From an uncultured Planctomycetales bacterium (GTDB taxonomy: Bacteria > Omnitrophota > Gorgyraeia > Zapsychrales > Aceulaceae): DNA of 64,000 nucleotides. The DNA lies in contig CAZAOD010000001.1 of NCBI GenBank assembly GCA_964486675.1, forward strand, positions 5,683-69,682, given 5' to 3'. Each line of letters begins with the position of its first letter. The stretch's first letter is position 1. Below the pieces are notes generated by a model that searched no databases, was not told where the DNA came from, and saw nothing but the letters and a program-made list of their open reading frames with translations. A program made the translations under genes and the position numbers. Positions 895 to 64,000 of the stretch are shown here, one piece after another.

Positions 895-1952
895 TCAAAA
901 AATATCTTTCTGATCTGATCGTTCAGGACCGTTGTGACGTGATCTCTCGTTTTATAAAAGGGTGTTTGCGTGGCTTGTCGTATATTTACTTTTTGGGATC
1001 AAGGTGTATTCTTTTGTGCTATCAGACAGGGGCCTTAAGGCAACGATATCTTGCTAAGCCAACGATCAGCGTTGGGAATTTGACACTTGGAGGAACGGGA
1101 AAAACGCCATTGGTGGGTTTTTTAGCAAAGATGCTTCAGCAAAAAGGGCGGCGCCCGGCGATCTTGACCAGAGGCTACATGACCTCAAAACATTTTTCTG
1201 ATGAGGTAGCGTTGTATTGTCAGATGCTTCACGATATCCCAGTTGAACAGGGAAAGGACAGGGTTTTATCCAGTCGTAAGGTCCTGCAGGACCATCCGGA
1301 TATCAATGTTTTCTTGCTTGATGATGGGTTTCAACATTGGAAAGTCAAAAGGGACCTGGATGTCGTGACCATTGATGCAACGGATGCCTTCAGCAATGGT
1401 TTCTTAATGCCGCGTGGGTTCTTGAGAGAACCGTTAACCGCGCTTAAGCGGGCAGATGTGATCGTTCTGACAAAAGTTGATCTGGCTCCAGAAACTCTCT
1501 CTCGTGTTTATCAGCAGATCAAAGAGAATAATTTTCACGCGATCTTTGTTGAAGCCGTGTACCAGCCGATCAAGTTGATCAATCTTAAAGATCCGCAGCA
1601 ATATTATGACCCAAGCTTTCTAGAGCACAAAGATGTATGTCTTTTTTCCGCGATCGGCAATCCTAAAGCATTTAAGAAAACCGTTTATGATCTTAAGGCG
1701 AACATTCAAAAAACATTTTCATTCCTCGATCACTATGTTTATACGAAGGAAGATATTGAGCGGATGATGCTTCGTGACCGCCCAAAAAAGACAACGATCT
1801 TTGTGACGACTCAGAAAGATGCTGTTAAGCTTGAAGGGTTGCTGTCCGAGGTCCCATCTTCTGTTGACTTATTTGCATTAGCTGTAGAGATGAAAATCAT
1901 TAAGGGAGAAAAAGAGTTTGAACGCAGAATTGATTCTGTTTTATTGTGTTAA
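891..1952 (+). CDS. lpxK: tetraacyldisaccharide 4'-kinase LpxK
   Basis: P-loop GNLTLGGTGKTP plus typical LpxK conservation. The ATG at 891 overlaps the kdtA stop (ATGA). The tabulated ORF start at 831 is upstream of the likely real start. Confidence 0.85.
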   Translation: MIKKYLSDLIVQDRCDVISRFIKGCLRGLSYIYFLGSRCILLCYQTGALRQRYLAKPTISVGNLTLGGTGKTPLVGFLAKMLQQKGRRPAILTRGYMTSKHFSDEVALYCQMLHDIPVEQGKDRVLSSRKVLQDHPDINVFLLDDGFQHWKVKRDLDVVTIDATDAFSNGFLMPRGFLREPLTALKRADVIVLTKVDLAPETLSRVYQQIKENNFHAIFVEAVYQPIKLINLKDPQQYYDPSFLEHKDVCLFSAIGNPKAFKKTVYDLKANIQKTFSFLDHYVYTKEDIERMMLRDRPKKTTIFVTTQKDAVKLEGLLSEVPSSVDLFALAVEMKIIKGEKEFERRIDSVLLC

Positions 1953-3864
1953 AGTTTTCGCGGCGATTGTACAGCGTTTGCCGTTAACGGTTGCCTTGTG
2001 GTTGGGGCGCATGATCGGTCTTTTAGGATACCTTTGCGATCATCGTCACCGGTCATTGGCTTATGCCAATCTAAAGATTGCTTTCGCGCGTGAAAAAAAG
2101 ACCAGCGAGATCAAGCGTATTTTACGCAGGACATTTGAGAATTACGGACAGAACTTGATCGAGTTGTTGCGCCTTCCTGTCATTGACCCAAAAACATATA
2201 TCAAGGTCGAGGGCCGAGAGCATGTGGAGAGGGCATTGGCCCAGGGAAAAGGCCTTATCTTTCTGGCTATGCATTTTGGCAGCTGGGAACTGTGCAATTT
2301 TATTCCTCAGCTTTTTCATCATCCCTATAAAGTCCTTGTGAACCCTCAAAAGCGCTATTCTCGCCTTGATGACCTTCTTAATTCTTATCGGCAGAAAGCT
2401 GGTGCTGGCCTTCTCAATCCTGGCGTTAGCACGCGTGCGTTCATTCAGACATTAAAGGATAATGAAATGGTTGGCATGGTCGTTGATCAAGGAGGCAAGA
2501 CGGGGAATCTGGTGAAGTTTTTTGGCCGTGACGCATCTATGTCGACGGGTGCCGTCAGGATGGCGCTTAAGCTGGATGTGGCGGTTTGTTTTTGTGTCTT
2601 GATCCGCGAAAAAGGCTACCATCGTCTTATTATTAAGCCTCAGCTGGCGCTTGCCAAATCTCGGGATTTAGAGGATGGTCTTCAGCAGGGTTTGTCCGGC
2701 ATCGTTCATCTGATGGAAGAGAACATCAAGAAGCATCCCTCGGAGTATATGTGGTTTTACAAGATCTGGAAATACTCAAAAGAGTCTACGATCGTTGTGC
2801 TTAATGATCGTAAGCTTGGTCATTTACATCAATCGTTGGCTGTTGCGGGTCAGATCCAAAGAGCACTGGCTCAGCGAGCGATCCAGTCCCACCTGGAAAT
2901 CATTGATATTGAATTTAAGAGTAAGACGCGTGAAAGAGTTTTTTCTGGGATCAGCTTCGCGAGCCATCGCCGAGTTTCTCAAGGACGTCTTCGCTATCTA
3001 AAATGGTTCTTGCAAAGAAAATCCTTCTTAGAGGTTATGAGCGTTAAGGGAGATTTTGTTATTTCCTGTGGGTCGTCCACGGCAGGCGTGAATTATTTTT
3101 TATCACAAGATTATCGTGCAAAAAGCATTGCTATCCAAAAGCCTGGGATCCTTGATCTTGATCGTTTTGACCTTGTTGTTTTGCCTGAGCACGACCGAAG
3201 TGTTTTTTATGAGCGTCAAAAGAACGTCCTTTACACAAAGGTCGCTCCGAATTTGATCACTCAAGAATATATTCAGTCGCAGGGCGATCAGCTGATGATG
3301 AAATTTCCAGCGTTGCGACATCGCAAAGGCATAAGGGTCGGTGTTCTTTGGGGAGGGGAATCAAAGCACCATGCGATCCCATCACCATTAGCCAGAATGG
3401 TCATGGATCAGCTGAAAGAAGCCGTTGAATCTCTGGATGGTCAGATGTTGCTGACGACATCCCGGCGCACATCGCAAGAAACAGATGATGCGATCCGTGA
3501 GGCGTTGCGCGGATTTGATCGTTGCATCTTTTCTGTTATGCCGAATCACCATAACATCGTTGAGGCCGTAGGTGGGATTTTAGGGTTGTCGGACATCTTA
3601 GTTGTTTCTTCTGATAGCATTTCAATGGTTTCTGAGGCTATCAGTTCCGGGAAGAAAGTCATTGTTTTCAAACCAGAAAAGCGTGTCCTTGGCACATGTA
3701 AGCATGATGTCTTCGTTGAAAAGCTAAGCGTTCAAGGGCATATTCTTGTCTCTGAGGCCAAGGATATCGGGCATTTTCTTTGTCGTGTTGCAAAAGAAGG
3801 TCTTGTGACTAAGCCAGTGGACCAGCAAGAGGACATATTTAAGGTTGCTCAAGAGATCATATGA
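1918..3864 (+). CDS. fusion protein with an N-terminal LpxL/HtrB-family lipid A late acyltransferase and a C-terminal ELM1/DUF1022-like domain
   Basis: The N-terminus (~300 aa) matches the LpxL pattern (LP..LG..LG, HFGSWE, Y/MWFYK end). The C-terminal ~330 aa carry TTSRRT and SISMVSEA motifs that I recall from Mito_fiss_Elm1/DUF1022 proteins. The start is TTG at 1918 and overlaps the lpxK end; an alternative ATG is at 2011. Confidence 0.6.
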   Translation: MNAELILFYCVKVFAAIVQRLPLTVALWLGRMIGLLGYLCDHRHRSLAYANLKIAFAREKKTSEIKRILRRTFENYGQNLIELLRLPVIDPKTYIKVEGREHVERALAQGKGLIFLAMHFGSWELCNFIPQLFHHPYKVLVNPQKRYSRLDDLLNSYRQKAGAGLLNPGVSTRAFIQTLKDNEMVGMVVDQGGKTGNLVKFFGRDASMSTGAVRMALKLDVAVCFCVLIREKGYHRLIIKPQLALAKSRDLEDGLQQGLSGIVHLMEENIKKHPSEYMWFYKIWKYSKESTIVVLNDRKLGHLHQSLAVAGQIQRALAQRAIQSHLEIIDIEFKSKTRERVFSGISFASHRRVSQGRLRYLKWFLQRKSFLEVMSVKGDFVISCGSSTAGVNYFLSQDYRAKSIAIQKPGILDLDRFDLVVLPEHDRSVFYERQKNVLYTKVAPNLITQEYIQSQGDQLMMKFPALRHRKGIRVGVLWGGESKHHAIPSPLARMVMDQLKEAVESLDGQMLLTTSRRTSQETDDAIREALRGFDRCIFSVMPNHHNIVEAVGGILGLSDILVVSSDSISMVSEAISSGKKVIVFKPEKRVLGTCKHDVFVEKLSVQGHILVSEAKDIGHFLCRVAKEGLVTKPVDQQEDIFKVAQEII

Positions 3865-5966
3865 AAATCTTACAGATCCTTCCTGAACTTAATGTGGGCG
3901 GTGTTGAAACAGGCACTATTGACCTTGCGCGCTATTTGACGGAACATGGCCATGAGGCCGTTGTGGTGTCCCATGGCGGAGCCCTTGTTCCAGAGCTAAA
4001 AAGTGCTGGCGCTAAGCATTATACATTGCCAGTCCATCAGAAAAATCTTTTGACCATGTTTTGGTCCATGAAAAGACTTCAGAGGATCATCATCCAAGAA
4101 AAAGTTGATATTGTTCATGCGCGTTCGCGTGTGCCAGCGTGGGTGGCATATTTTGCCTGCCGCAAAACAGGGGTCCCATTCATTACGACATGTCATGGGT
4201 ATTATTCGAAGCATTTTTTTAGTGTTGTGATGGGATGGGCCAAGCTGATCATCGTTCCCAGTCGGGTTATCGGCCATCATATGGTTGAAGATTTTGGTGT
4301 TCCACTTGAAAGTATTCGCTGTATCCCTCGCAGTGTTGATATCCGTAAATTCAACATCCCCAGAGACGAAGATCCAAAACGTCATCCGGTCATCGCGATC
4401 GTTGGCCGTATTACCCCTTTGAAAGGGCACGAATATTTTTTAAGGGCGATGGCTCGCGTTGTTCGTCAGATGCCATACGTAAAAGTTTGGGTTATCGGTG
4501 ATGCTCCCTTGGAAAAAGAGTCTTACAAAGAAGGCTTGTTGAGCTTGACGAAGCAGTTAGGGCTTGTGAACTGTGTTGAATTTTTAGGCAACCGCAAGGA
4601 TATTCCTCAGCTCCTTTCAAGAGTAGATGTTCTTGTTCTGTCGACGGTAACGCAAGAGTCATTTGGCCGTGTCATTCTCGAAGCGCAAGCAGCGGGTGTT
4701 CCTGTTGTCGCTACGCGCGTAGGAGGGGTCGTTGATATCATCGAGGAAGGGGAAACCGGACTTTTGGTAGCCCCTAGACAGCCAGATGAGATGGCTCAGG
4801 CCATTCTTAGGATACTCAATGACACCTCGTTATCAAAAGCGATCGTTGCTAATGCCAAAAAGAAGCTTTTAGAAGAGTACACCTTAGACCACATGGCAAG
4901 TCAAACGCTGGCTGTCTATCAGGAATTATTGCAAACGGTCCATCTTTTAGTGATCAAGTTGAGCGCGATCGGAGACGCGTTACTGATCACACCATCATTG
5001 AAAGCGCTAAGGGAAAAGTTTCCTTTTGCGAGGATCTCTTGTTTGGTGGGACCATCTATCAGGGAGCTCTTGCAAAGGTGCCCTTATGTGGACGAAATCA
5101 TTGTCTATGATCCGAAAGGAAAGCATCGCGGAAAGCTTGGCCTTTGGCGGCTTGGACGCACGCTGCGCAAACATCATTTTGATAAGGTGATCGATCTTCA
5201 GAATAATCGAAAAAGTCACTTGTTAGCATTTTTGAGTTTTTGCCCTGAACGTTATGGCTATAAGAATAAGAAATGGGGATTTTTATTGTCGCGAGGCATT
5301 AAAGATGATCAGGGGATCTTACCGGCTATCCCGCACCAGTTTCGTGTCTTAAAGCAGGTTGGGATCAGCATGGAAGAAGATGTTAAGCTAGAAGTCTGGC
5401 CTTCGCCTCAGGATTACCGCTATGTTCGAGAACTTTTGGAAGGTTATTGGCTTGCAAAAGGGGTAGCGGTCGTTGGTATTAATGTTTCAGCTTCAACCCG
5501 TTGGCCAAGCAAGAATTGGCCAAAAGAGCATATTGCGAAGCTTTGCGATCTCTTGGCGGCGAAAAATATTCGTGTTGTTTTGACTGGGCTAAAAATCGAT
5601 CAACCGGCCGCTCAGGCGATCATAAAGCTTACTAAGGCAAAACCCATTGACCTCACAGGAAAGACAACAGTTCTGCAAATGGCTTCGCTTATTCAGCAAT
5701 GTTCAGCTTTTGTTGTCTCGGATTCCGCGCCTATGCATCTTGCCGCAGCAGTAAGCACGCCGTTTGTTGCCCTTTTCGGTCCGACGGATCCTTTTCGTCA
5801 TTTGCCCCCGGCAAAAAAATATAAGGTCATTGCGTTAAAGCCGCATTGTGCGCCGTGCTATCAGGGGTATTGTCCGATAAAGACACATGCGTGCATGGCC
5901 AACATTTCTCCTCAGGCCGTTTTGCAGGAGATCGAGAGTTTAATCGAGAAAAAGCAGGAAATATGA
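3861..5966 (+). CDS. two-domain glycosyltransferase with an N-terminal GT4 (GT-B, E-x7-E) domain fused to a C-terminal GT9 ADP-heptose:LPS heptosyltransferase domain
   Basis: The N-terminal half has GT4 motifs (ESFGRVILEAQAAGVPVV...GETG). The C-terminal half has the GT9 N-motif LVIKLSAIGDALLITPSL and a C-terminal DSAPMHLAAA..FGPTDP. ATG 3861 overlaps the upstream stop. Confidence 0.75.
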   Translation: MKILQILPELNVGGVETGTIDLARYLTEHGHEAVVVSHGGALVPELKSAGAKHYTLPVHQKNLLTMFWSMKRLQRIIIQEKVDIVHARSRVPAWVAYFACRKTGVPFITTCHGYYSKHFFSVVMGWAKLIIVPSRVIGHHMVEDFGVPLESIRCIPRSVDIRKFNIPRDEDPKRHPVIAIVGRITPLKGHEYFLRAMARVVRQMPYVKVWVIGDAPLEKESYKEGLLSLTKQLGLVNCVEFLGNRKDIPQLLSRVDVLVLSTVTQESFGRVILEAQAAGVPVVATRVGGVVDIIEEGETGLLVAPRQPDEMAQAILRILNDTSLSKAIVANAKKKLLEEYTLDHMASQTLAVYQELLQTVHLLVIKLSAIGDALLITPSLKALREKFPFARISCLVGPSIRELLQRCPYVDEIIVYDPKGKHRGKLGLWRLGRTLRKHHFDKVIDLQNNRKSHLLAFLSFCPERYGYKNKKWGFLLSRGIKDDQGILPAIPHQFRVLKQVGISMEEDVKLEVWPSPQDYRYVRELLEGYWLAKGVAVVGINVSASTRWPSKNWPKEHIAKLCDLLAAKNIRVVLTGLKIDQPAAQAIIKLTKAKPIDLTGKTTVLQMASLIQQCSAFVVSDSAPMHLAAAVSTPFVALFGPTDPFRHLPPAKKYKVIALKPHCAPCYQGYCPIKTHACMANISPQAVLQEIESLIEKKQEI

Positions 5967-8070: not shown

Positions 8071-8998
8071 AAAGATCCTTATTGTAAGCCTTACGAATAT
8101 CGGGGACGTGGTCTTAACGTGTCCGGTGATCGATGCGCTCATCAATCGTTTTCCCTTAGCAGAAATTTCAGTCGTCGTTGGACCAAAAGCCCAGACATTG
8201 TTCGAGCGCAATCCTTATATCAAGAAGGTGCATGTTTTTACAAAGAAGGAGACCTTCGGTGAACTTATTTCTTTCGTTCAGCAGTTGAGACAGCAACGCT
8301 TTGACGCGGTCATTGATCTGCGCAACACAGCGTTAGGGTATTTCTTGGGAGCCCCATTTCATACTTCTGTTTTTGCGTGTATTGATCCTTACCTGCATAA
8401 GCGTGACCAGCATTGGCAGAGGTTGCAAAGTCTTTTTTCTGATGTGGAGCGCACAAAAAAACGTTATGCGATCTTTATTGATGAAACGATAAGAAAGAAG
8501 TCTGAGAATATTTTACGTCAGACCTTGGAGTATGGTAAAGGATATTGCGTGATCGCCGCTGGCTCTGCAGACCGAAAAAAGCGATGGACCGCAGATGGTT
8601 TTGTTTCTGTCTGTCAAGCGTTGGTCCAAACATATCGTATGCCTGTATTCTTTGTTGGAGACATCCTTGATTACGAAGGAGCAGAAAACATTATCAAAAA
8701 GGTCTCACAAGGGGCTGTTAATCTTTGTGGCAAGCTTTCCTTGTTGGAAACAACATGGGTTTTGCGTAATAGCCGTCTTTTGCTTTGTAACGATAGCGCG
8801 GCTATGCATCTTGCCAGCTATTTTGATGTCCCGACTGTCGCTTTGTTCGGGCCCACGGACCCGCGCAAATATGGTCCTTGGGGTGAGCGCAGCTGTTTTG
8901 TCCGAGCAAAGATGATCAATGAAGCTGGCGAAGGTCTTATGACCACTATCGACCCGCAAGAAGTTTTGGATCGCATGAAAGAGCTGATAGTTTTATGA
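8051..8998 (+). CDS. ADP-heptose:LPS heptosyltransferase (GT9), second tandem copy
   Basis: KKILIVSLTNIGDVVLTCPV and DSAAMHLASYFDVPTVALFGPTDP. The start is TTG at 8051, so the exact start is uncertain. Confidence 0.7.
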   Translation: MNKCEIKKILIVSLTNIGDVVLTCPVIDALINRFPLAEISVVVGPKAQTLFERNPYIKKVHVFTKKETFGELISFVQQLRQQRFDAVIDLRNTALGYFLGAPFHTSVFACIDPYLHKRDQHWQRLQSLFSDVERTKKRYAIFIDETIRKKSENILRQTLEYGKGYCVIAAGSADRKKRWTADGFVSVCQALVQTYRMPVFFVGDILDYEGAENIIKKVSQGAVNLCGKLSLLETTWVLRNSRLLLCNDSAAMHLASYFDVPTVALFGPTDPRKYGPWGERSCFVRAKMINEAGEGLMTTIDPQEVLDRMKELIVL

Positions 8999-10083
8999 AA
9001 CAACGATATTTTAAGAATATTCTTGTTGTAAGAACTGACCGGATTGGTGATGTCGTCTTGACAACACCCGTTTTGGAGGCTCTGCGCAAGGCATATCCTT
9101 CGGCCAGGATTTCCATCATGGTGACATCCGCAACCAAGGACGTGGTAGAAGGTAATCCTTTTATCGATGAAGTGATTTCTTATGACAAGAGAGGTAAAGA
9201 CAAGGGATTTCTTGGATTTTGGCGGTTTATTCGTTTTCTAAAGAGCAAAAAATTTGATCTCGCGATCAATTATCACTTGAAGAACAGAACTAATTTTATG
9301 CTGTTCCATGCGGGGATCCCAAACCGGATCGGTTTTGCAAATGACAAGTTCGGTTTTTTGCTGACGGAGAGCTATCCAGATCCTCGAACGGATGGGACTA
9401 AGCATGAAGCGGAATATTGCTTGGACTTGCTGCGAAATATTGGCGTTGATCACCAAGGATTCCAGGTTCATGTTCCGATCCACCGCGCCTCAGAAGTGTG
9501 GGTTGCAAAACTTTTTGCTGAAAATCATATCAATCCTGATGACCGGCTTATCGCGATCCATCCTGGGGCCAGCTGTCTTTCGAAACGTTGGCCTCCGCAG
9601 CGTTTCGCGGAAGTTGCCGATATTCTGGAAAAGGAATATCAGGCAAAGATTATCGTAATAGGCTCTGGCGATAATCAACTTGTCGCTCGGGAGGTTTTGT
9701 TGTCTATGAAGCAATCTGTTGTGGATATGACGGGACGAACGACTATAAGTCATTTGATCAGCCTTTTGAAAAGATGCGCCTTGCTGATCTCGAACGATTC
9801 TGGGCCTGTTCATTTGGCTGTTGGCGTTCAGACACCTGTGGTTTCGATTTTTGGCCGCAATCAAGCAGGCTTATCGGCTACTCGCTGGAAACCCTTAGGC
9901 GAGTTAGACATTGCTTTGCATCATGATATTGGATGCAAGGTTTGTTTAGCCCATAACTGTGATCGCCATTTTCAATGCTTGCGATCGATCACGGTAGACC
10001 ATGTGGTAGAGGCCGCGCGGACGATTTTAAAGAAGAAAATATCGAAAAAAGATGAAAAAGACGATAATATTGTTAACCCCTGA
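8995..10083 (+). CDS. ADP-heptose:LPS heptosyltransferase (GT9), third tandem copy
   Basis: NILVVRTDRIGDVVLTTPVL and DSGPVHLAVGVQTPVVSIFG; ATGA overlap at 8995. Confidence 0.8.
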   Translation: MKQRYFKNILVVRTDRIGDVVLTTPVLEALRKAYPSARISIMVTSATKDVVEGNPFIDEVISYDKRGKDKGFLGFWRFIRFLKSKKFDLAINYHLKNRTNFMLFHAGIPNRIGFANDKFGFLLTESYPDPRTDGTKHEAEYCLDLLRNIGVDHQGFQVHVPIHRASEVWVAKLFAENHINPDDRLIAIHPGASCLSKRWPPQRFAEVADILEKEYQAKIIVIGSGDNQLVAREVLLSMKQSVVDMTGRTTISHLISLLKRCALLISNDSGPVHLAVGVQTPVVSIFGRNQAGLSATRWKPLGELDIALHHDIGCKVCLAHNCDRHFQCLRSITVDHVVEAARTILKKKISKKDEKDDNIVNP

Positions 10084-10099
10084 ACATGCGAGGTAATTC

Positions 10100-10456
10100 A
10101 TGGCAGAGAGATTCGATCAGCGTGAGTTTGTCCGTGTCCCAGATTGTTCCGATGTTGTCTATACGCCTATTTCGTCAGGCAAAAAGACAAAAAGCGAGAT
10201 CAAAGATATCAGCCAGGCAGGGATCTGCTTTATCTCAGAAGAAAAGCTTGAACCCGGAGCCACTATCGATCTGACGCTCACCTTGGAAAAGATCGGATTT
10301 TCTTTTGTCGCGCAGGGGGTCGTGAGATGGGTCAATGAAGTTGTGAAGAATAGGCGCTACGAGGTCGGTATCAAGTTCGTTGATCTTCCCGATCAAGATA
10401 TACGTCGTTTGCTTAATTATATGAATTCCATGAAAAAGTTTGATAGTTATCGGTAA
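10100..10456 (+). CDS. PilZ-domain c-di-GMP-binding protein (stand-alone, 118 aa)
   Basis: An N-terminal R..EFVR (RxxxR-like) and a DISQAGICF (DxSxxG) motif pair, preceded by a GAGGT ribosome-binding site. Confidence 0.65.
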   Translation: MAERFDQREFVRVPDCSDVVYTPISSGKKTKSEIKDISQAGICFISEEKLEPGATIDLTLTLEKIGFSFVAQGVVRWVNEVVKNRRYEVGIKFVDLPDQDIRRLLNYMNSMKKFDSYR

Positions 10457-10507
10457 GATGTTCAGCGCCCTGCCTTTTTTGGCTGCATTTTCTAGAGATT
10501 TATTCGT

Positions 10508-10536
10508 TTGACGCTCTTTTTAAACTATGCTAAAAT
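10508..10536 (+). promoter_or_regulatory. sigma70-type promoter TTGACG-17-TAAAAT with an extended -10 (TGc)
   Basis: It lies in the 147-bp gap between the PilZ gene and the heptose kinase gene. The -35 box is at 10508-10513 and the -10 box at 10531-10536, with TG at 10528-10529. Confidence 0.45.
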
Positions 10537-10603
10537 CGGCTCTTTAGTTGAGTCTTAAGAGAGCAAATTTGTCCTCCTTGCCGTATTAATACTTATAATA
10601 ATT

Positions 10604-11632
10604 ATGATCAATTTTCCAACACATATCATTTCTCGCTTCCGCGGAAAGAAGATCTTGGTCATCGGTGACATTATTTTGGACCAATATATCCATGGCGCCG
10701 TTGAAAGGATCTCTCCGGAAGCGCCTGTACCTGTTGTGCTGCAGGAGGGAGAGGCGCGCTTTACCCCAGGCGGCGCCGCCAATGTGGCCAACAATTTGAG
10801 CAGTTTAGGCGCGCGTGTTGTTCTCTCTGGTCAAGTAGGAGACGATCTAGAGGCGAGGATCCTGTATCGGGAGTTTAAAAAGCGCTGCGTTGGCACGGCG
10901 GGATTGATCAAAGATCTTAATGGCATGACGTCTTTAAAGACTCGCATCATTGCTCAGCACCAACAGGTGGTCCGTGTTGATCGAGAAAATGGGTCTGGCG
11001 TAAGCCCCGAAGCGAGTCAAAAGATCCTCGCGTTCATTGAGAAGAATTTCCATAAGTTCGACGCGATCATTTTGTCAGATTACGGTAAAGGTGTTATCAC
11101 AAGGGACCTTGTCCGTCGAGTCTGCGCACTAAAGCGCCGGCACCATACGATCGTTACTGTTGATCCTAAGGTGGAGCATTTTAACTACTATCACCAGGCC
11201 ACGTGCATAACGCCAAATCGAAAAGAGACTGAAAACGCGATCCGTAATATTATCATCACGCATGAAAAAGGGCGTCAGCTCAAGATCAGGAACGACAAGC
11301 TAAAGACCATCAAAGATGTTCGTTTGGCTGGACAAGAAATATTGAATTATTTGAATCTGGAATCTTTGCTTGTGACCTTGGGTGAGCAAGGGATGTGTCT
11401 TTTCCAGAAAGGCCAAGAGCCTTTTTTAATAGCCACAAAAGCTAAAGAAGTTTTTGATGTTACAGGCGCAGGGGATACGGTTATTTCTGTTTTTACGTTG
11501 AGCCTAGCAGCGGGGGCTTCTAAGCAGGAGGCCGCGATCCTTGCGAACTATGCCGCAGGCGTTGTTGTCGGGAAAACCGGAGCTGTCGCGGTGACTCCTA
11601 ATGAAATTTTAGCTGCTATGACAGAGAGTTAA
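10604..11632 (+). CDS. hldA: D-glycero-beta-D-manno-heptose-7-phosphate kinase (HldE domain I only; HldA-like monofunctional kinase)
   Basis: ILVIGDIILDQYIHG..ISPEAPVPVV..PGGAANVANN and a C-terminal DVTGAGDT pfkB-family motif. At 342 aa there is no adenylyltransferase domain. Confidence 0.8.
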   Translation: MINFPTHIISRFRGKKILVIGDIILDQYIHGAVERISPEAPVPVVLQEGEARFTPGGAANVANNLSSLGARVVLSGQVGDDLEARILYREFKKRCVGTAGLIKDLNGMTSLKTRIIAQHQQVVRVDRENGSGVSPEASQKILAFIEKNFHKFDAIILSDYGKGVITRDLVRRVCALKRRHHTIVTVDPKVEHFNYYHQATCITPNRKETENAIRNIIITHEKGRQLKIRNDKLKTIKDVRLAGQEILNYLNLESLLVTLGEQGMCLFQKGQEPFLIATKAKEVFDVTGAGDTVISVFTLSLAAGASKQEAAILANYAAGVVVGKTGAVAVTPNEILAAMTES

Positions 11633-14172: not shown

Positions 14173-14702
14173 TGAAGCTCAGCGCAGCGCTGAAAGCAAG
14201 AATGAAGAATATCAAGGTTTTAGCCATGGATGTTGATGGCGTGCTGACCAATGGCCAATTGATCTTTGATGGGCAAGGGCGAGAACTCAAAAGTTTTAAT
14301 GTCCAAGACGGGTTTGGTATTGTCATTCTTAAGCGTGCCGGTATCAAGACGGCGATCATCACGGCAGGCAATTCCAAGGTCGTCAAGGTCCGGGCAGATT
14401 ATCTTCATATCGATAGATTATATTCAGGTGTTTATCCCAAGATGACAGCCTACGAGCATATGCTAAAAGAATTTAAGGTTGTGGACGCTCAGGTTTGTTT
14501 TATCGGTGACGATATCACGGATTGTCAGATTCTTAAGCGTGCCGGATTGGGCATTGCTGTTCGTAATGCTGTTGCTGAGGCAAAGAGCGCTGCTGATGGG
14601 GTGACGACGCGTTGCGGCGGTGATGGAGCTGTGCGGGAAGTGATCGAGCTTTTGTTGAAAGCAAAAGGTTTGTGGACGAAGGTCGTTGCTGGCGACCTGT
14701 AG
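14172..14702 (+). CDS. kdsC: Kdo-8-phosphate phosphatase KdsC (HAD family)
   Basis: LAMDVDGVLTNG..FIGDDITD HAD motifs, 176 aa, 1-nt overlap with the kdsD stop. Confidence 0.8.
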   Translation: MKLSAALKARMKNIKVLAMDVDGVLTNGQLIFDGQGRELKSFNVQDGFGIVILKRAGIKTAIITAGNSKVVKVRADYLHIDRLYSGVYPKMTAYEHMLKEFKVVDAQVCFIGDDITDCQILKRAGLGIAVRNAVAEAKSAADGVTTRCGGDGAVREVIELLLKAKGLWTKVVAGDL

Positions 14703-14718
14703 CTTCAAGAGGTGCTTG

Positions 14719-15555
14719 ATGAAAAAGAATATCCTGTTTCTTATCATCTTTGCAAGCGGGATCTTTTTTGCCTGTCCGTTGCTGGCTCAAACTGATAGCC
14801 AGCAGATGGAAGGATTTAACTTATCCGGTTACGGGGATGGCGGTCAGAAGTCTTGGGATTTAAAAGGATCAACGGCGGATATTCAGAATAATGAAATTAA
14901 TATCACGGATGTTGACGCAAATTCTTATGGCGAAGAGGATATGAATGTCACCGCAAAGAAAGGGCGCATCGATAAGCAAAGCGGGGACATGAAGCTTCAG
15001 GAGGATGTCGTTGTAACAACCTCTGGCGGGATCAAGATGATCACGGATACTCTCAATTGGCAGAAAAAAGAAGACTTGATCACGACTGATGACAAAGTGA
15101 CCATCGTGCGAGAAAACATGATTGCCATTGGACAGGGGGCTGTTGCCCAGCCAGGCCTTAATAAAGCTAAGCTGAATGAGGATGTTTCAGTAGAGTATAA
15201 GCCTAAGGCCAATGACGCTATGGAGGGAGAAATTACCATTACCTCTGATGGCCCGATGGAGGTCGACTATGAGGGTCAAACAGCTGTTTTTCAGGACAAC
15301 GTGATCGCTGTTCAAGGTGATCGACGATTGATGGCGGATAAAATGGAGCTTTTTTTCGATTCTGAAAAAAAGCAGATCAAGCAGATGATCTGCACGGGTA
15401 ATGTGCTGATCGTTCAAGGAGAAAATACTTCTTTTTCCGATAAAGCTGTGTATGAGGCAGGAAGCAAAAAGATCAAACTTTACGGACGGCCGAAGTTGTT
15501 ACTGTATATGGATAACAAGGAAAAAAAAGATAGCCATGTACCTTCTGGAAGCTAA
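14719..15555 (+). CDS. LptC/LptA-like (OstA-fold) LPS transport protein with an N-terminal membrane anchor, apparently a compact LptC-LptA hybrid
   Basis: The N-terminal TM/signal is MKKNILFLIIFASGIFFACPLLA. The first half resembles LptC and the second half LptA (TAVFQDNVIAVQGDRRLMADKMELF..GNVLIVQGENTSFSDKAVYEAG..KLYGRPKL). It lies between kdsC and lptB, with ATG at 14719 after an AAGAGGTG ribosome-binding site. Confidence 0.6.
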   Translation: MKKNILFLIIFASGIFFACPLLAQTDSQQMEGFNLSGYGDGGQKSWDLKGSTADIQNNEINITDVDANSYGEEDMNVTAKKGRIDKQSGDMKLQEDVVVTTSGGIKMITDTLNWQKKEDLITTDDKVTIVRENMIAIGQGAVAQPGLNKAKLNEDVSVEYKPKANDAMEGEITITSDGPMEVDYEGQTAVFQDNVIAVQGDRRLMADKMELFFDSEKKQIKQMICTGNVLIVQGENTSFSDKAVYEAGSKKIKLYGRPKLLLYMDNKEKKDSHVPSGS

Positions 15556-60067: not shown

Positions 60068-60262
60068 TTGAGCCGATAAAGGCAAACCCGGGGAAACCCG
60101 GGGGCGCAAAACCACAGACCTAAGTTGTCTGAAGCAGCTTGCGCCCCGCACCCGGAGTGGTGCAGGGGCTACCTCAAGGGCCGGTTGGGCCGCAGTGGAT
60201 GACAAGACGGTGGCTGGGTTGCCGAAGTGGACATACTTTGTCGGCTCTTTCTTTTTTCCTTC
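60068..60262 (+). ncRNA. candidate c-di-GMP-I (GEMM) riboswitch with a terminator-type expression platform
   Basis: The core GGCAAACC-CGGG-GAAA-CCCG-GGGGCGCAAAACC at 60081-60113 closely matches the V. cholerae Vc2 core GGCAAACC-AUUC-GAAA-GAGU-GGGACGCAAAGCC. The next hairpin is CAGAC-CUAAGUU-GUCUG and carries a CCUAAG tetraloop-receptor motif. The 3' junction GGGGCUACC (60165-60173) resembles Vc2 GGGGUUACC. A P1-like pairing forms between 60068-60074 and 60167-60177. GGGUUGCC (60216-60223) can pair with GGCAAACCC (60081-60089) and overlaps the terminator stem. Confidence 0.6.
60221..60257 (+). terminator. intrinsic terminator of the riboswitch expression platform
   Basis: Stem GCCGA (60221-60225) / TCGGC (60241-60245), a 15-nt loop, then the U-tract TCTTTCTTTTTT (60246-60257). 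Confidence 0.5.
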
Positions 60263-60448: not shown

Positions 60449-63400
60449 ATGACCGCCTGCGGTAACAAAGCCCAAAGAAAATTCATTTCAAAGATCATTT
60501 CTGTCTTTATCGCCTTTAGTTTTCTTTTCACCTCTGTTATTCCAAGCTATGCCCAGAGTCTCTCTGGGCCTGCGGTCATTCCATCGGGGCTAATCACGCC
60601 CACGGCAGCCTTTATGCCTGTTATGTTGCGCGCTATTGAGATCGACCCTGTTAATCCTTTGCATTTTGGCTTTATCGTGGATAACGGTGACACTGGTCTA
60701 GAAGGTGAGGCCTTGACCGCGGAAGCCAAGAATCTCATTCGCTACTTTTTAGCCTCCTTGACAACCCCTGAAAAAGAAATGTGGGTTAACCTTTCGCCGT
60801 ATGAAAAAGACCGCATCATTCCTGATAGCTTCGGCCAGACCCAGATGGGCCGAGACCTTTTAGCCCAAGACTACATGTTGAAACAATTGACAGCTTCCTT
60901 GATATATCCGGAAGATGAACTTGGCAAGAAGTTTTGGGACAAGATTTACAAGACTGCTTATGAGAAGTATGGCACCACCGAGATGCCCATGGATACATTC
61001 AACAAGATCTGGATCTTGCCTAAGAAGGCCACCGTTTATGAAAACAATAACCGAGTTTTTGTTGTTGATAGTGAGCTCGCCGTTATGATGGAGGAGGATG
61101 TTCTGGCACTGCAGAAAAGTAGAGAGGAGAAAGTAGAGAGTAGAGAGATTGGAAAAGATGCGGGTGGCTTGAGCCAGAGCTCTCAGCCGCGCGCAGCGGC
61201 AGGGGTTCCCCGCGGGGGGATGGGTGCCGCGAGCACGGATGAGATGGCGAAAGACAGGACCCGCACCTTGACATCCCAGATCGTGCGCGAGATCGTATTG
61301 CCTGAGATCGAAAAAGAGGTCAATTTTGGCAAGAATTTTGCTGCCCTTCGCCAGGTTTACAGTGCGATGATCCTGGCAGCGTGGTACAAGAACAATTTGA
61401 GGGAAAGCTTGCTTGGAAAAGTCTATATGGATCAAAATAAGATCAAGGGGATCGATCTTGTTGATAAAACTGAGAAGCAGAGGATCTATGATGAATACGT
61501 TAATGCCTTTAAAAAAGGTATTTATGACTTTATTAAGGTTGAGCACGACCAATACACGGGAAAAAATATTCCGCGTAAGTATTTTTCAGGCGGTTTCACG
61601 CCTACTACTTCTGATGGGATCCCTTTAGGCGAGGCGTTGGAAGAGGTCACTCCATCCGCAGATAAATTGCAAGCAAAGGGAAGTGCAACGAGATTTGACG
61701 CGAATCTAAGGGAAAGTAAGGACGGAAAGGGTTCCCCCGGCTCTGCGATCATTTCAAGGATATCGTCTTTAGAGCCGGCATCTGTTCTTTTGCGAGAGAT
61801 CGCGTCTAAGTTCGAGCTGGCTGGAAAAATGCTTTTAAGCTTTAATATTCTTACAGAGGAAGGATATTCTTACGGATTTTCTTTAAGCGATCCCCAGGCT
61901 TCAGGTCGCCTAAGCGTTGTTTTGCCAAAAGCTAAGAAGGTTACGATGTTCTTTAAAGATAGGACCTCTTTAGCCTTTGCCAAAGATGCAGCAAATAGCC
62001 GATGGAAGATAACACAGTTTTACGGTCAAGGATTTAATTTCAAGGACGAAGGAGCAAAATGGAGTGAGCTCGGTGGCTCTGTCAATATCCCTAAGTTTCA
62101 CGCTATTGTGGATCAAAGAGATATGACAACAGGGATCATCGCGGAAAATATGGCTTTAGGGTTGGTCAGTGACGACATCAAGCAGGTCGAGTGGTATAGG
62201 CCCAGCAGTAAAAACCTCATGGCTGAAAAACTTGCTTCTGTGCCGCAAGATGTCAGAGAACCTTTGACGGTAAAGATGTTTATTCGTGACGGCTATGTTG
62301 TTCTTCATCGAGCCAAAAAGGCAAATTTTTGGGAGTTTGTATCGCAGGGGATGCCACTGGCAGAAGATAAAGAAGAAGCCGTGTCTTCCAGCATTCGTAT
62401 TATTTCAAAGGAGGAGATCGATCCGTTCGTTCAAAAGTTAGGCATGGACAAGCCGGGTAGCACTTTTAACCGAGATTATTTTGCAAGTCTTATTGCTCAA
62501 TATAATCAGCAAATGGTCGATAAGCAAAAAGGAATTGTTAACGATCTGGTTATTGGCAAGAATTTCTTTCCAAATTCTATGATCTCAGCGTCAAAAATGA
62601 AAGAGATCATGAACGCGACGGATTTCGCGACAGAGATCTTGTCGCAGGAGGAAAAGTATCTTGAGGCTGCCAAGAATGTTGATCATCGCATTGATTTTAT
62701 GAACGGCGGAGCAGGGACTTCTGTGGGGGGAGTTGGGGCGAAGTCCATGGCCTTGACCTTTGTTGAAGATCTACAAGGATTTGATAAAGGCGGAAATCCT
62801 AAGATCTTTAAAAATGTGGAATTTAGCATTCTCGATGTAAAGTATGTCCACAACATCATTGCCGCCCAAAAAGGTCGCGTTGCGCGCGCCAGTATTCGTG
62901 AGCTTGTAAGCAAAGATACCGTTGGCCCTATCTCAGAGTTTCGCAATAATCATATTTGCCTTCTTGATAAGATCGATGATCGCATCCCAGAAAGTAAAAA
63001 GCGCACGTACGCTGAATATATTAAAGGAATGCAGGGGATTAACTTAGACGAAGACATGATCGTGCAGGCAATCCAACCCGTTGTTGATGTGGCAACAGGA
63101 GAGCTAACAGATCGAAAAACATCTCCAGGCGGTCATGGTGTTTTTGGGCGAATGTCTTTTGAAGAAATCCTTAATGATGTTCTGCCTGAAGATAAGGTAG
63201 TGATCCGCGATATTACTAATGGGGATGGTCCGAACAATCAAATTCCGTCCGTTGTTTTAGGCTGGATGGCGGCCAACAAGGTCCCCATGGTACTTTTGTC
63301 ATCGACAACCATGGAATTGGATAAAAAAGGTGGCAAGGTGGGTGCCCAGCCTGTCGAGGACGGCCTTTTGCTGCAGGATCTTACCGCTGACAACACGCGC

Positions 63401-64000
63401 ATTAACATGATGGAAACTGTTCAAGCGGGCAAGGTTGGGCAGGGTGAGCTTTTTCAGAAGATCGGTTTGACTACAGGTCCTGTTGAAGATGTTGGGCAGG
63501 AGGGGGAGCAGTTCTTTAATACAAACATTATGGGTATCAACGAGACTGTGCTTCAGCCATTCTTGCGCGAGCTGGAACAGATCATCGGACACGAACAATA
63601 TGTGCAGTGGACATCGCCAACTTTTATCGATAACCCAAAAGAAAACGGCACGATCTATCAGATCGAGGGCGCCTTGGGCCATGTGCTTCAGAATCTTGAT
63701 TACCACGTGCGCTACACCGATAACCAGAAAGTAAAAGACTTGATGAAAAAGTACGGTTGGACGAGGCTTTTGCATATCGTGAATTTTACACCTGAATACC
63801 GAGAACTATGCTTTACGCCGGTTAAATTTGCCTTGGATTGGAATTATTATTTATCTGAGCATTTTACGATGGACACAAAAGAATGGTCCATGAGAAACAA
63901 CAAGCCAGGACATTTGGCACGGTTTGAATTTTCTAAGTCCTACGAGGATTATTATCAGAAAAACAAGATCAACGCGCATAAAATTCTTCCATTGGGTTCT
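60449..64000 (+). CDS. very large protein (>1184 aa, 3' end beyond window) with an N-terminal signal peptide/anchor, a ~600-aa uncharacterised region and a C-terminal UDPGP-family (UTP-sugar-1-phosphate uridylyltransferase-like) domain
   Basis: The frame is open from ATG 60449 (AAGGAG ribosome-binding site 8 nt upstream) to the window end. The N-terminus is MTACGNKAQRKFISKIISVFIAFSFLFTSVIPSYAQS. UDPGP motifs are FMNGGAGTSVGG..KS (eukaryotic LNGGLGTSMG..KS), SPGGHG (PPGHGD), KKGGKVG (KGGTL) and FNTNIMGIN (FNTNNLW). Minus-strand ORFs here are antisense artefacts. Confidence 0.7.
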   Translation, partial: MTACGNKAQRKFISKIISVFIAFSFLFTSVIPSYAQSLSGPAVIPSGLITPTAAFMPVMLRAIEIDPVNPLHFGFIVDNGDTGLEGEALTAEAKNLIRYFLASLTTPEKEMWVNLSPYEKDRIIPDSFGQTQMGRDLLAQDYMLKQLTASLIYPEDELGKKFWDKIYKTAYEKYGTTEMPMDTFNKIWILPKKATVYENNNRVFVVDSELAVMMEEDVLALQKSREEKVESREIGKDAGGLSQSSQPRAAAGVPRGGMGAASTDEMAKDRTRTLTSQIVREIVLPEIEKEVNFGKNFAALRQVYSAMILAAWYKNNLRESLLGKVYMDQNKIKGIDLVDKTEKQRIYDEYVNAFKKGIYDFIKVEHDQYTGKNIPRKYFSGGFTPTTSDGIPLGEALEEVTPSADKLQAKGSATRFDANLRESKDGKGSPGSAIISRISSLEPASVLLREIASKFELAGKMLLSFNILTEEGYSYGFSLSDPQASGRLSVVLPKAKKVTMFFKDRTSLAFAKDAANSRWKITQFYGQGFNFKDEGAKWSELGGSVNIPKFHAIVDQRDMTTGIIAENMALGLVSDDIKQVEWYRPSSKNLMAEKLASVPQDVREPLTVKMFIRDGYVVLHRAKKANFWEFVSQGMPLAEDKEEAVSSSIRIISKEEIDPFVQKLGMDKPGSTFNRDYFASLIAQYNQQMVDKQKGIVNDLVIGKNFFPNSMISASKMKEIMNATDFATEILSQEEKYLEAAKNVDHRIDFMNGGAGTSVGGVGAKSMALTFVEDLQGFDKGGNPKIFKNVEFSILDVKYVHNIIAAQKGRVARASIRELVSKDTVGPISEFRNNHICLLDKIDDRIPESKKRTYAEYIKGMQGINLDEDMIVQAIQPVVDVATGELTDRKTSPGGHGVFGRMSFEEILNDVLPEDKVVIRDITNGDGPNNQIPSVVLGWMAANKVPMVLLSSTTMELDKKGGKVGAQPVEDGLLLQDLTADNTRINMMETVQAGKVGQGELFQKIGLTTGPVEDVGQEGEQFFNTNIMGINETVLQPFLRELEQIIGHEQYVQWTSPTFIDNPKENGTIYQIEGALGHVLQNLDYHVRYTDNQKVKDLMKKYGWTRLLHIVNFTPEYRELCFTPVKFALDWNYYLSEHFTMDTKEWSMRNNKPGHLARFEFSKSYEDYYQKNKINAHKILPLGS

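Follow-up and report, generated by a model that had tools for sequence, protein, structure and literature searches.

[quoted passage not shown] In BcsA (cellulose) and in Alg44-Alg8 (alginate), the PilZ domain either forms a fusion with a processive GT2 synthase-exporter or is anchored in the membrane next to it. Other PilZ proteins are made of two domains. YcgR joins an N-terminal YcgR domain to a C-terminal PilZ domain in about 230–250 aa, and MotI/DgrA (YpfA) of Bacillus subtilis, which acts on the flagellar stator, joins an N-terminal PilZ-like domain to a PilZ domain in 216 aa. The single-domain PilZ adaptors MapZ (PA4608), HapZ and N5MapZ (XAC3402), which pair with CheR1, SagS and HemK, respectively, are PilZ-only proteins of about 110–125 aa that have an RxxxR and a D/NxSxxG motif, a beta-barrel and a C-terminal helix. 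For the single-domain class as a whole, a length of about 80–140 aa has been given (preprint 10.1101/2020.02.11.943704). For the characterized single-domain PilZ proteins, partners came from interaction screens and not from gene adjacency; the function of such proteins is, as the authors emphasize, hard to infer without experiment (PMC11250160). The original prediction for the locus described here had started from the premise that a single-domain PilZ protein usually acts on the enzyme encoded next to it; this is an over-generalization, as HemK came to light as the partner of N5MapZ by two-hybrid screening (PMC11250160). Full-text searches found no link in the literature between PilZ and heptosyltransferases or LPS core synthesis and, for c-di-GMP effectors in Omnitrophota, nothing beyond passing mention.

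We analysed a 64,000-nucleotide stretch of DNA, hereafter called the window, from an uncultured Candidatus Omnitrophota bacterium. Omnitrophota cells are ultra-small and often host-attached. The gene under study occupies positions 10100–10456 of the forward strand, with an ATG start and the stop codon within these coordinates, and encodes a 118-aa protein, a candidate cytoplasmic single-domain c-di-GMP receptor. Its predicted possession of a ribosome-binding site of its own was borne out: a GAGG at positions 10090–10093 (forward strand), read from the sequence, lies 6 nt 5′ of the ATG, and a purine-rich GAGG, GGAG or GGGG is found at the equivalent position in the aligned orthologous loci. In a Pfam scan, the protein matched a single family, PilZ (PF07238), for which it scored 55.7 bits (gathering score 22.5; E = 6.6e-15); the match spans residues 7–108 and covers positions 2–100 of the 102 in the model. 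At 118 aa and with one Pfam family, the protein falls within the length class of single-domain PilZ proteins. Near-identical proteins bear the NCBI label 'PilZ domain-containing protein', and no long hydrophobic stretch was seen when the sequence was inspected by eye.

Two other assignments were considered and rejected. The protein has weak profile similarity to TIGR02266, the Myxococcus-type PilZ paralogue family, and scores 39 bits against that family's cut-off of 68.7. JGI names the orthologues P0007, P0012 and P0028 'flagellar brake protein YcgR'. We regard this label as over-annotation, as the window protein is PilZ-only, with 118 aa, and has no N-terminal YcgR domain.

The same locus is present in the MAG contig JAKQPK010000050.1, where PilZ is 98% identical. 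Comparison of the PilZ gene with that of the 98%-identical strain L001 revealed 22 synonymous and 3 non-synonymous differences (dN/dS 0.029); the corresponding dN/dS values are 0.046 for GT9c, the gene upstream of PilZ (see below), 0.052 for HldA and 0.056 for KdsA. The PilZ gene is real and is constrained at least as strongly as these three genes.

The two motifs predicted to bind c-di-GMP can be read directly from the sequence: RxxxR, as R8-E-F-V-R12 at positions 10121–10135, and DxSxxG, as D36-I-S-Q-A-G41 at positions 10205–10222 (both forward strand). Twenty-three residues lie between R12 and D36, in keeping with a [D/N]xSxxG motif about 20–30 residues after RxxxR. The 17 closest sequences, when aligned, show no variation at R8, R12, D36, S38 or G41. 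When orthologues and paralogues were taken together (42 sequences), R8, R12 and G41 were invariant, position 36 was D or N with one E, and position 38 was S with one G. A profile search of the PDB returned MotI/YpfA (5vx6) as the sole match (E = 3e-4), with RxxxR aligned on RRQYVR and DxSxxG on NISAGG. The predicted fold of the window protein is the PilZ fold, a six-stranded beta-barrel with a C-terminal helix; in the AF2 secondary structure this helix comprises residues 98–116 (positions 10391–10447, forward strand), among which L104, Y107 and D115 are invariant. The prediction of a stand-alone, canonical PilZ protein with intact RxxxR and DxSxxG motifs thus holds against PF07238 and in the 42 relatives in which the motifs are conserved. 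The window PilZ shows all those features defining PF07238 and the single-domain class that can be tested, and its motifs, predicted fold and strength of selection lead us to consider it very probably a canonical c-di-GMP receptor. The residue that precedes RxxxR is Q. R/K or L has been described at this position for PilZ proteins that bind a dimeric or a monomeric ligand (preprint 10.1101/2020.02.11.943704), and since Q is neither, the ligand stoichiometry is not predictable.

Another conserved element is specific to the orthogroup. The segment W77–E88 (WVNEVVKNRRYE; positions 10328–10363, forward strand) forms a hairpin in which W77, E80, K83, N84, R86, Y87 and E88 are invariant within the orthogroup, and its KNRR is not kept in the paralogues. 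In the predicted model, strands are located at residues 67–82 and 86–93. We propose that this hairpin may be the partner-binding surface.

As originally predicted, the PilZ gene is embedded in a cluster for LPS core and Kdo synthesis. Pfam and NCBIfam scans gave the gene order, all on the forward strand, as WaaA (truncated by the window start), LpxK, LpxL::Elm1, GT4::GT9, GT4, GT9a, GT9b, GT9c, PilZ, HldA, KdsB, KdsA, KdsD, KdsC, LptC/LptA, LptB, trigger factor and ClpP. GT9a matches the heptosyltransferase II model TIGR02195 with 169.8 bits. GT9c, the third GT9 and a WaaF-like heptosyltransferase II (positions 8995–10083, forward strand), matches PF01075 with 111 bits and TIGR02195 with 145.5 bits (cut-off 134.6). 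The hldA-type gene for D-glycero-beta-D-manno-heptose-7-phosphate kinase (positions 10604–11632, forward strand) matches TIGR02198 with 361 bits (cut-off 345) and is separated from PilZ by 147 nt. The remainder of the window contains housekeeping genes. Among the approximately 59 window ORFs scanned, we found no GGDEF, EAL or HD-GYP gene and, by Pfam, no flagellar gene. An HMM built from the PilZ family detected no further PilZ in the 64 kb; with a single PilZ in such a length, PilZ genes appear too sparse for the adjacency to be expected by chance.

The cluster has some unusual features of its own. Two fusion genes are conserved across the clade: one at positions 1918–3864 (648 aa), which combines a lipid A acyltransferase with an Elm1-like domain (PF03279 and PF06258), and one at positions 3861–5966 (701 aa), which combines GT4 and GT9. 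Double-GT9 fusions of 550–630 aa occur in some relatives (e.g., P0067). At positions 14686–15555, one 289-aa ORF unites LptC (PF06835) with LptA/LptD_N (PF03968), a fusion shared by all related loci. Co-orientation is extreme: from position 1 to 60000, essentially all credible genes (about 60) are on the forward strand, with short or overlapping junctions.

We then compared the locus with those of its relatives. A profile search delimited an orthogroup of 30 clusters (45–92% identity, 159–224 bits), with paralogues scoring at most 95 bits. When 1.84 billion representatives at 50% identity were scanned exhaustively with HMMER, one matched at E <= 1e-30 (174 bits), the next best scoring 97 bits. 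Judged by these scores, the PilZ orthogroup is a single narrow clade. Flanking DNA represented ten orthologue lineages at 45–98% identity, grouped as the window with L001; L002–L005 with L009; L010; L006, L007 and L011; L012; L008; L021 and L022; L023 and L024; L025 and L026; and L027 and L028. PilZ is associated with GT9c in all ten. It lies directly 3′ of GT9c in eight, with gaps of 16–112 nt, and one extra gene intervenes in the other two. This extra gene, confined to Candidatus Aceula-like lineages (L023:6165–6941 and L027:6165–6941), encodes 258 aa with a signal peptide and no Pfam match and carries the NCBI entry MDP8266120.1, hypothetical protein. The adjacency of GT9c and PilZ has held through a divergence that saturates synonymous sites.

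By contrast, the 3′ side of PilZ is unstable. In every fetched relative that shows both PilZ and hldA, including the 98%-identical strain, one to eight unrelated genes separate them. In L002, these include two small ORFs, a flavodoxin-like gene, a GT87 gene, a gene for a triple-REC protein and a GMP-synthase-like gene; L008, L021, L023 and L027 have cupin and PNPOx genes here, and L025 has a 74-aa ORF. In L001, a 390-aa transglutaminase-like gene (L001:8374–9546; PF01841, signal peptide) is located between PilZ and the hldA promoter; it is absent at window positions 10457–10500, and the two strains become similar again some 8 nt 5′ of the −35 element. The predicted placement of PilZ, with the last heptosyltransferase on one side and the heptose kinase on the other, is thus correct for the strain of the window and conserved on the GT9c side, but does not extend to relatives on the HldA side. 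From the gene orders, the conserved link is that between GT9c and PilZ, not that between PilZ and HldA. Since PilZ is kept beside GT9c while its 3′ side turns over, even between strains, its retention would seem to be more than simple inertia. As a separate observation, response-regulator receiver proteins also occupy variable gaps of the cluster in other lineages, namely L002:11290–12459 (389 aa, three REC stretches) and L033:7072–7446 (124 aa, single REC); signalling receivers are thus recurrent inside the LPS cluster.

The boundary between the two halves of the cluster appears to be set by a promoter. A predicted sigma-70-type promoter of the hldA-kdsBADC-lpt unit is located at positions 10508–10536 (forward strand) and reads TTGACG-17-TAAAAT, with an extended −10 element, TGcTAAAAT. 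The promoter that had been predicted to follow PilZ is substantiated in so far as it is conserved across lineages; the pattern with its TG extension is unique in the 64-kb window. The form TTGAC-N15-TGnTAnAAT occurs exactly once per locus in 18 loci (L001, L002, L004–L006, L008–L010, L021, L023, L025–L028 and L033–L036), always just 5′ of hldA where the fetched DNA includes hldA. It has been conserved though the proteins of these lineages are only 45–70% identical, and it is also present in lineages without this PilZ. In L001, the promoter sits beyond the inserted gene, adjoining hldA. On this evidence, hldA is predicted to start a separate promoter-led unit, the promoter delimiting the PilZ-containing unit on its 3′ side. 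The conserved hldA promoter and the downstream turnover together argue that PilZ belongs with the glycosyltransferase block. We also note that the conserved core of the 29-nt promoter, AAACTATGCTAAAATC, exceeds what a sigma-70 −10 element requires; the extra length may represent an additional regulator site.

A consensus scan detected no terminator in the gap after PilZ, and folding of positions 10445–10605 gave no significant structure (z = −1.6). As no terminator is evident 3′ of PilZ, read-through into hldA is possible. On the 5′ side, three lineages (L008:3370–3431, L023:6942–7000 and L027:6942–7000) have a promoter-like element, TTGCnA-16-TGnTA(A/C)ACT, whose 3′ end is some 20 nt from the PilZ ATG; there, PilZ may be transcribed on its own. 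The homologous stretch of the window (positions 10060–10099, GTTAACCCC) is degenerate and overlaps a Lys/Asp/Glu-rich C-terminal extension of GT9c.

An Rfam scan of the whole window at gathering scores found no RNA element near PilZ. Its sole match is a c-di-GMP-I-GGC riboswitch at positions 60072–60227 (forward strand), which scores 61.5 bits and so passes the gathering score of 59, so that the element described as riboswitch-like at 60.1 kb can now be assigned to the c-di-GMP-I class. The presence of this riboswitch shows that the organism uses c-di-GMP. It is followed by an ORF at positions 60449–64000 (forward strand) of at least 1183 codons, which has an N-terminal hydrophobic segment and no Pfam match and runs past the window end; its product is a candidate for a giant protein of the surface or membrane under c-di-GMP control.

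Paralogues of the window PilZ (at most 38% identity) are found in other contexts: P0031 lies beside the pilus genes PilM, T2SSF and T2SSE, and P0035 beside a REC-GGDEF gene. Homologues of GT9, HldA and Kds proteins are absent from the approximately 10 paralogue loci examined, so the association with the LPS cluster is a property of the orthogroup. GT9c itself is far more widely distributed than the PilZ orthogroup, with 2991 matches at E <= 1e-20 that include many Omnitrophota sequences of 48–57% identity. Two loci of this wider set, L035 and L036 (GT9c 55% identical), have a different PilZ gene between GT9b and GT9c, immediately 5′ of GT9c. The L035 protein (L035:7496–7969; MFA5059809.1) has 157 aa, matches PF07238 with 30.3 bits and has RKFDR and NVSVEG motifs; it is 26% identical to the window PilZ. 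We rejected it as an orthologue, as this identity extends over 81 residues with an hhalign probability of 78%; its score against the family HMM, which is below those of several paralogues from unrelated contexts, likewise disfavours orthology. In L033 and L034, the same cluster is present without PilZ, and the gap between GT9b and GT9c holds a single-domain response regulator and other genes. No fused PilZ domain was found among 120 listed GT9c homologues. A regulatory extension was also considered for the long (550–630 aa) GT9c homologues; in P0067, the one checked, this was rejected, the protein having two GT9 stretches and being a double-GT9 fusion.

We propose the following mechanism. PilZ would bind c-di-GMP via R8xxxR12 and D36xSxxG41. 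Its gene, with which the conserved part of the glycosyltransferase half closes, is probably transcribed together with GT9c or just behind it, and lies 5′ of the separate hldA-kds-lpt promoter. The protein would most likely act as a trans-acting adaptor. Binding of c-di-GMP would order the flexible N-terminal arm and the loop of residues 27–38 around the ligand, whereupon the orthogroup-specific surface, comprising the W77–E88 hairpin and the helix of residues 98–116, would engage or release a cytoplasmic LPS-core enzyme. The adjacent GT9c would be the best candidate for this partner. Inner-core glycosylation, in its degree or type, would then track the cellular c-di-GMP level.

How probable is such a role? 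A functional link of PilZ to LPS-core glycosylation or assembly is plausible, with a chance that we put a little short of even. It is suggested by the adjacency to GT9c despite divergence, by the downstream turnover, by the specificity of the association to the orthogroup and by the second, unrelated PilZ that flanks GT9c. Against it, the LPS supercluster is collinear as a whole across the phylum, so that shared ancestry accounts for part of the positional conservation; the orthogroup does not reach beyond one narrow clade, PilZ possibly has its own promoter in L008, L023 and L027, and the 120 listed homologues include no GT9-PilZ fusion. The origin of known adaptor-partner pairs in interaction screens (PMC11250160) and the lack of a PilZ-heptosyltransferase link in the literature searched also count against it. 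The cluster without PilZ in L033 and L034 implies that any such control would be dispensable. That GT9c is the direct partner is a more tentative proposition, and we are inclined to doubt it even while naming GT9c. The same degree of doubt attaches to the general form of the proposal, namely, that c-di-GMP directly tunes LPS inner-core glycosylation in Omnitrophota through stand-alone PilZ adaptors that were recruited at least twice (the 118-aa protein 3′ of GT9c and the 157-aa protein 5′ of it) and dock on the GT9 heptosyltransferase; on the gene-order evidence this is possible, if rather unlikely.

The same observations can be read in other ways. PilZ may be a functional c-di-GMP receptor whose partner is encoded elsewhere, for instance in the pilus, motility, secretion or translation machinery, the junction between the glycosyltransferases and hldA being merely a tolerated landing site kept by descent in a narrow clade. 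We take this as a serious possibility, although not a probable one. The junction is an insertion hot spot for unrelated genes (cupin, PNPOx, flavodoxin, transglutaminase-like and REC-domain), the surrounding cluster is collinear anyway, and the orthogroup amounts to one 50%-identity cluster in one clade; moreover, a promoter of its own may lie 5′ of PilZ in some lineages, type IV pilus genes accompany close paralogues, and the known partners of single-domain PilZ proteins are often non-neighbours (PMC11250160). A tolerated landing site accounts less well for the fact that PilZ is the sole junction gene in 10/10 lineages, always first after the glycosyltransferase block, while the genes behind it turn over even between strains, and for the second, non-orthologous PilZ that flanks GT9c in another lineage. 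PilZ could instead act on LPS precursor supply or export by binding HldA (the ADP-heptose pathway), a Kds enzyme, or LptB/LptC, so as to tune flux and not core structure. All these candidate targets are cytoplasmic or cytoplasm-facing and are encoded in the same supercluster, the window PilZ is only 147 nt from hldA, and the order in L035 is PilZ-GT9c-hldA. The one to eight unrelated genes that part PilZ from hldA in every fetched relative showing both, and the position of hldA at the head of a separate unit whose conserved promoter is also found in lineages without PilZ, make this reading improbable as a whole; HldA in particular, given the unstable downstream side and its own conserved promoter, is a still weaker option. 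Finally, the protein might be a degenerate PilZ that does not bind c-di-GMP and serves as a structural or oligomerizing subunit, like XC1028, XCC6012 or PilZ PA2960. The Q that precedes RxxxR, in place of R/K or L, could be taken in favour of this reading; degenerate PilZ proteins are, however, defined by motif loss (preprint 10.1101/2020.02.11.943704), and here both motifs are complete, conserved and under strong purifying selection, which renders it very improbable.

If this PilZ acts on a GT9 heptosyltransferase, PilZ adaptors would have a target range that takes in non-processive GT-B enzymes; no PilZ-controlled GT-B/GT9 enzyme would have come before it, and LPS core assembly would gain its first post-translational input from c-di-GMP. 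An uncultured phylum would couple the surface chemistry of its outer membrane to a second messenger, and the outermost glycolipid would be remodelled along with a switch between free-living and attached states. If the link is false, the protein is one more among thousands of uncharacterized single-domain PilZ proteins. The hypothesis is clean and testable, but is based on gene neighbourhood alone, within a narrow clade. Since the proteins are small and soluble, it can be tested in vitro without culturing the organism.

The PilZ protein itself belongs to a known kind; what may be new is its target, an LPS inner-core GT9. MotI/DgrA (YpfA) of B. subtilis is its closest solved relative by sequence; the motifs of the two align, and 5vx6 is among the top fold matches. 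MotI differs from the window protein, which is single-domain, in its two-domain build and in its action on the flagellar stator. Like BcsA and Alg44, the window PilZ is linked with a glycosyltransferase; unlike them, it is free and soluble and adjoins the non-processive GT9 and GT4 enzymes of the LPS inner core, not a processive synthase-exporter. With the single-domain adaptors MapZ, HapZ and N5MapZ, it shares length, PilZ-only composition, both motifs, the beta-barrel and the C-terminal helix. By analogy, the window PilZ would be expected to work as they do, by c-di-GMP-dependent docking on a cytoplasmic enzyme.
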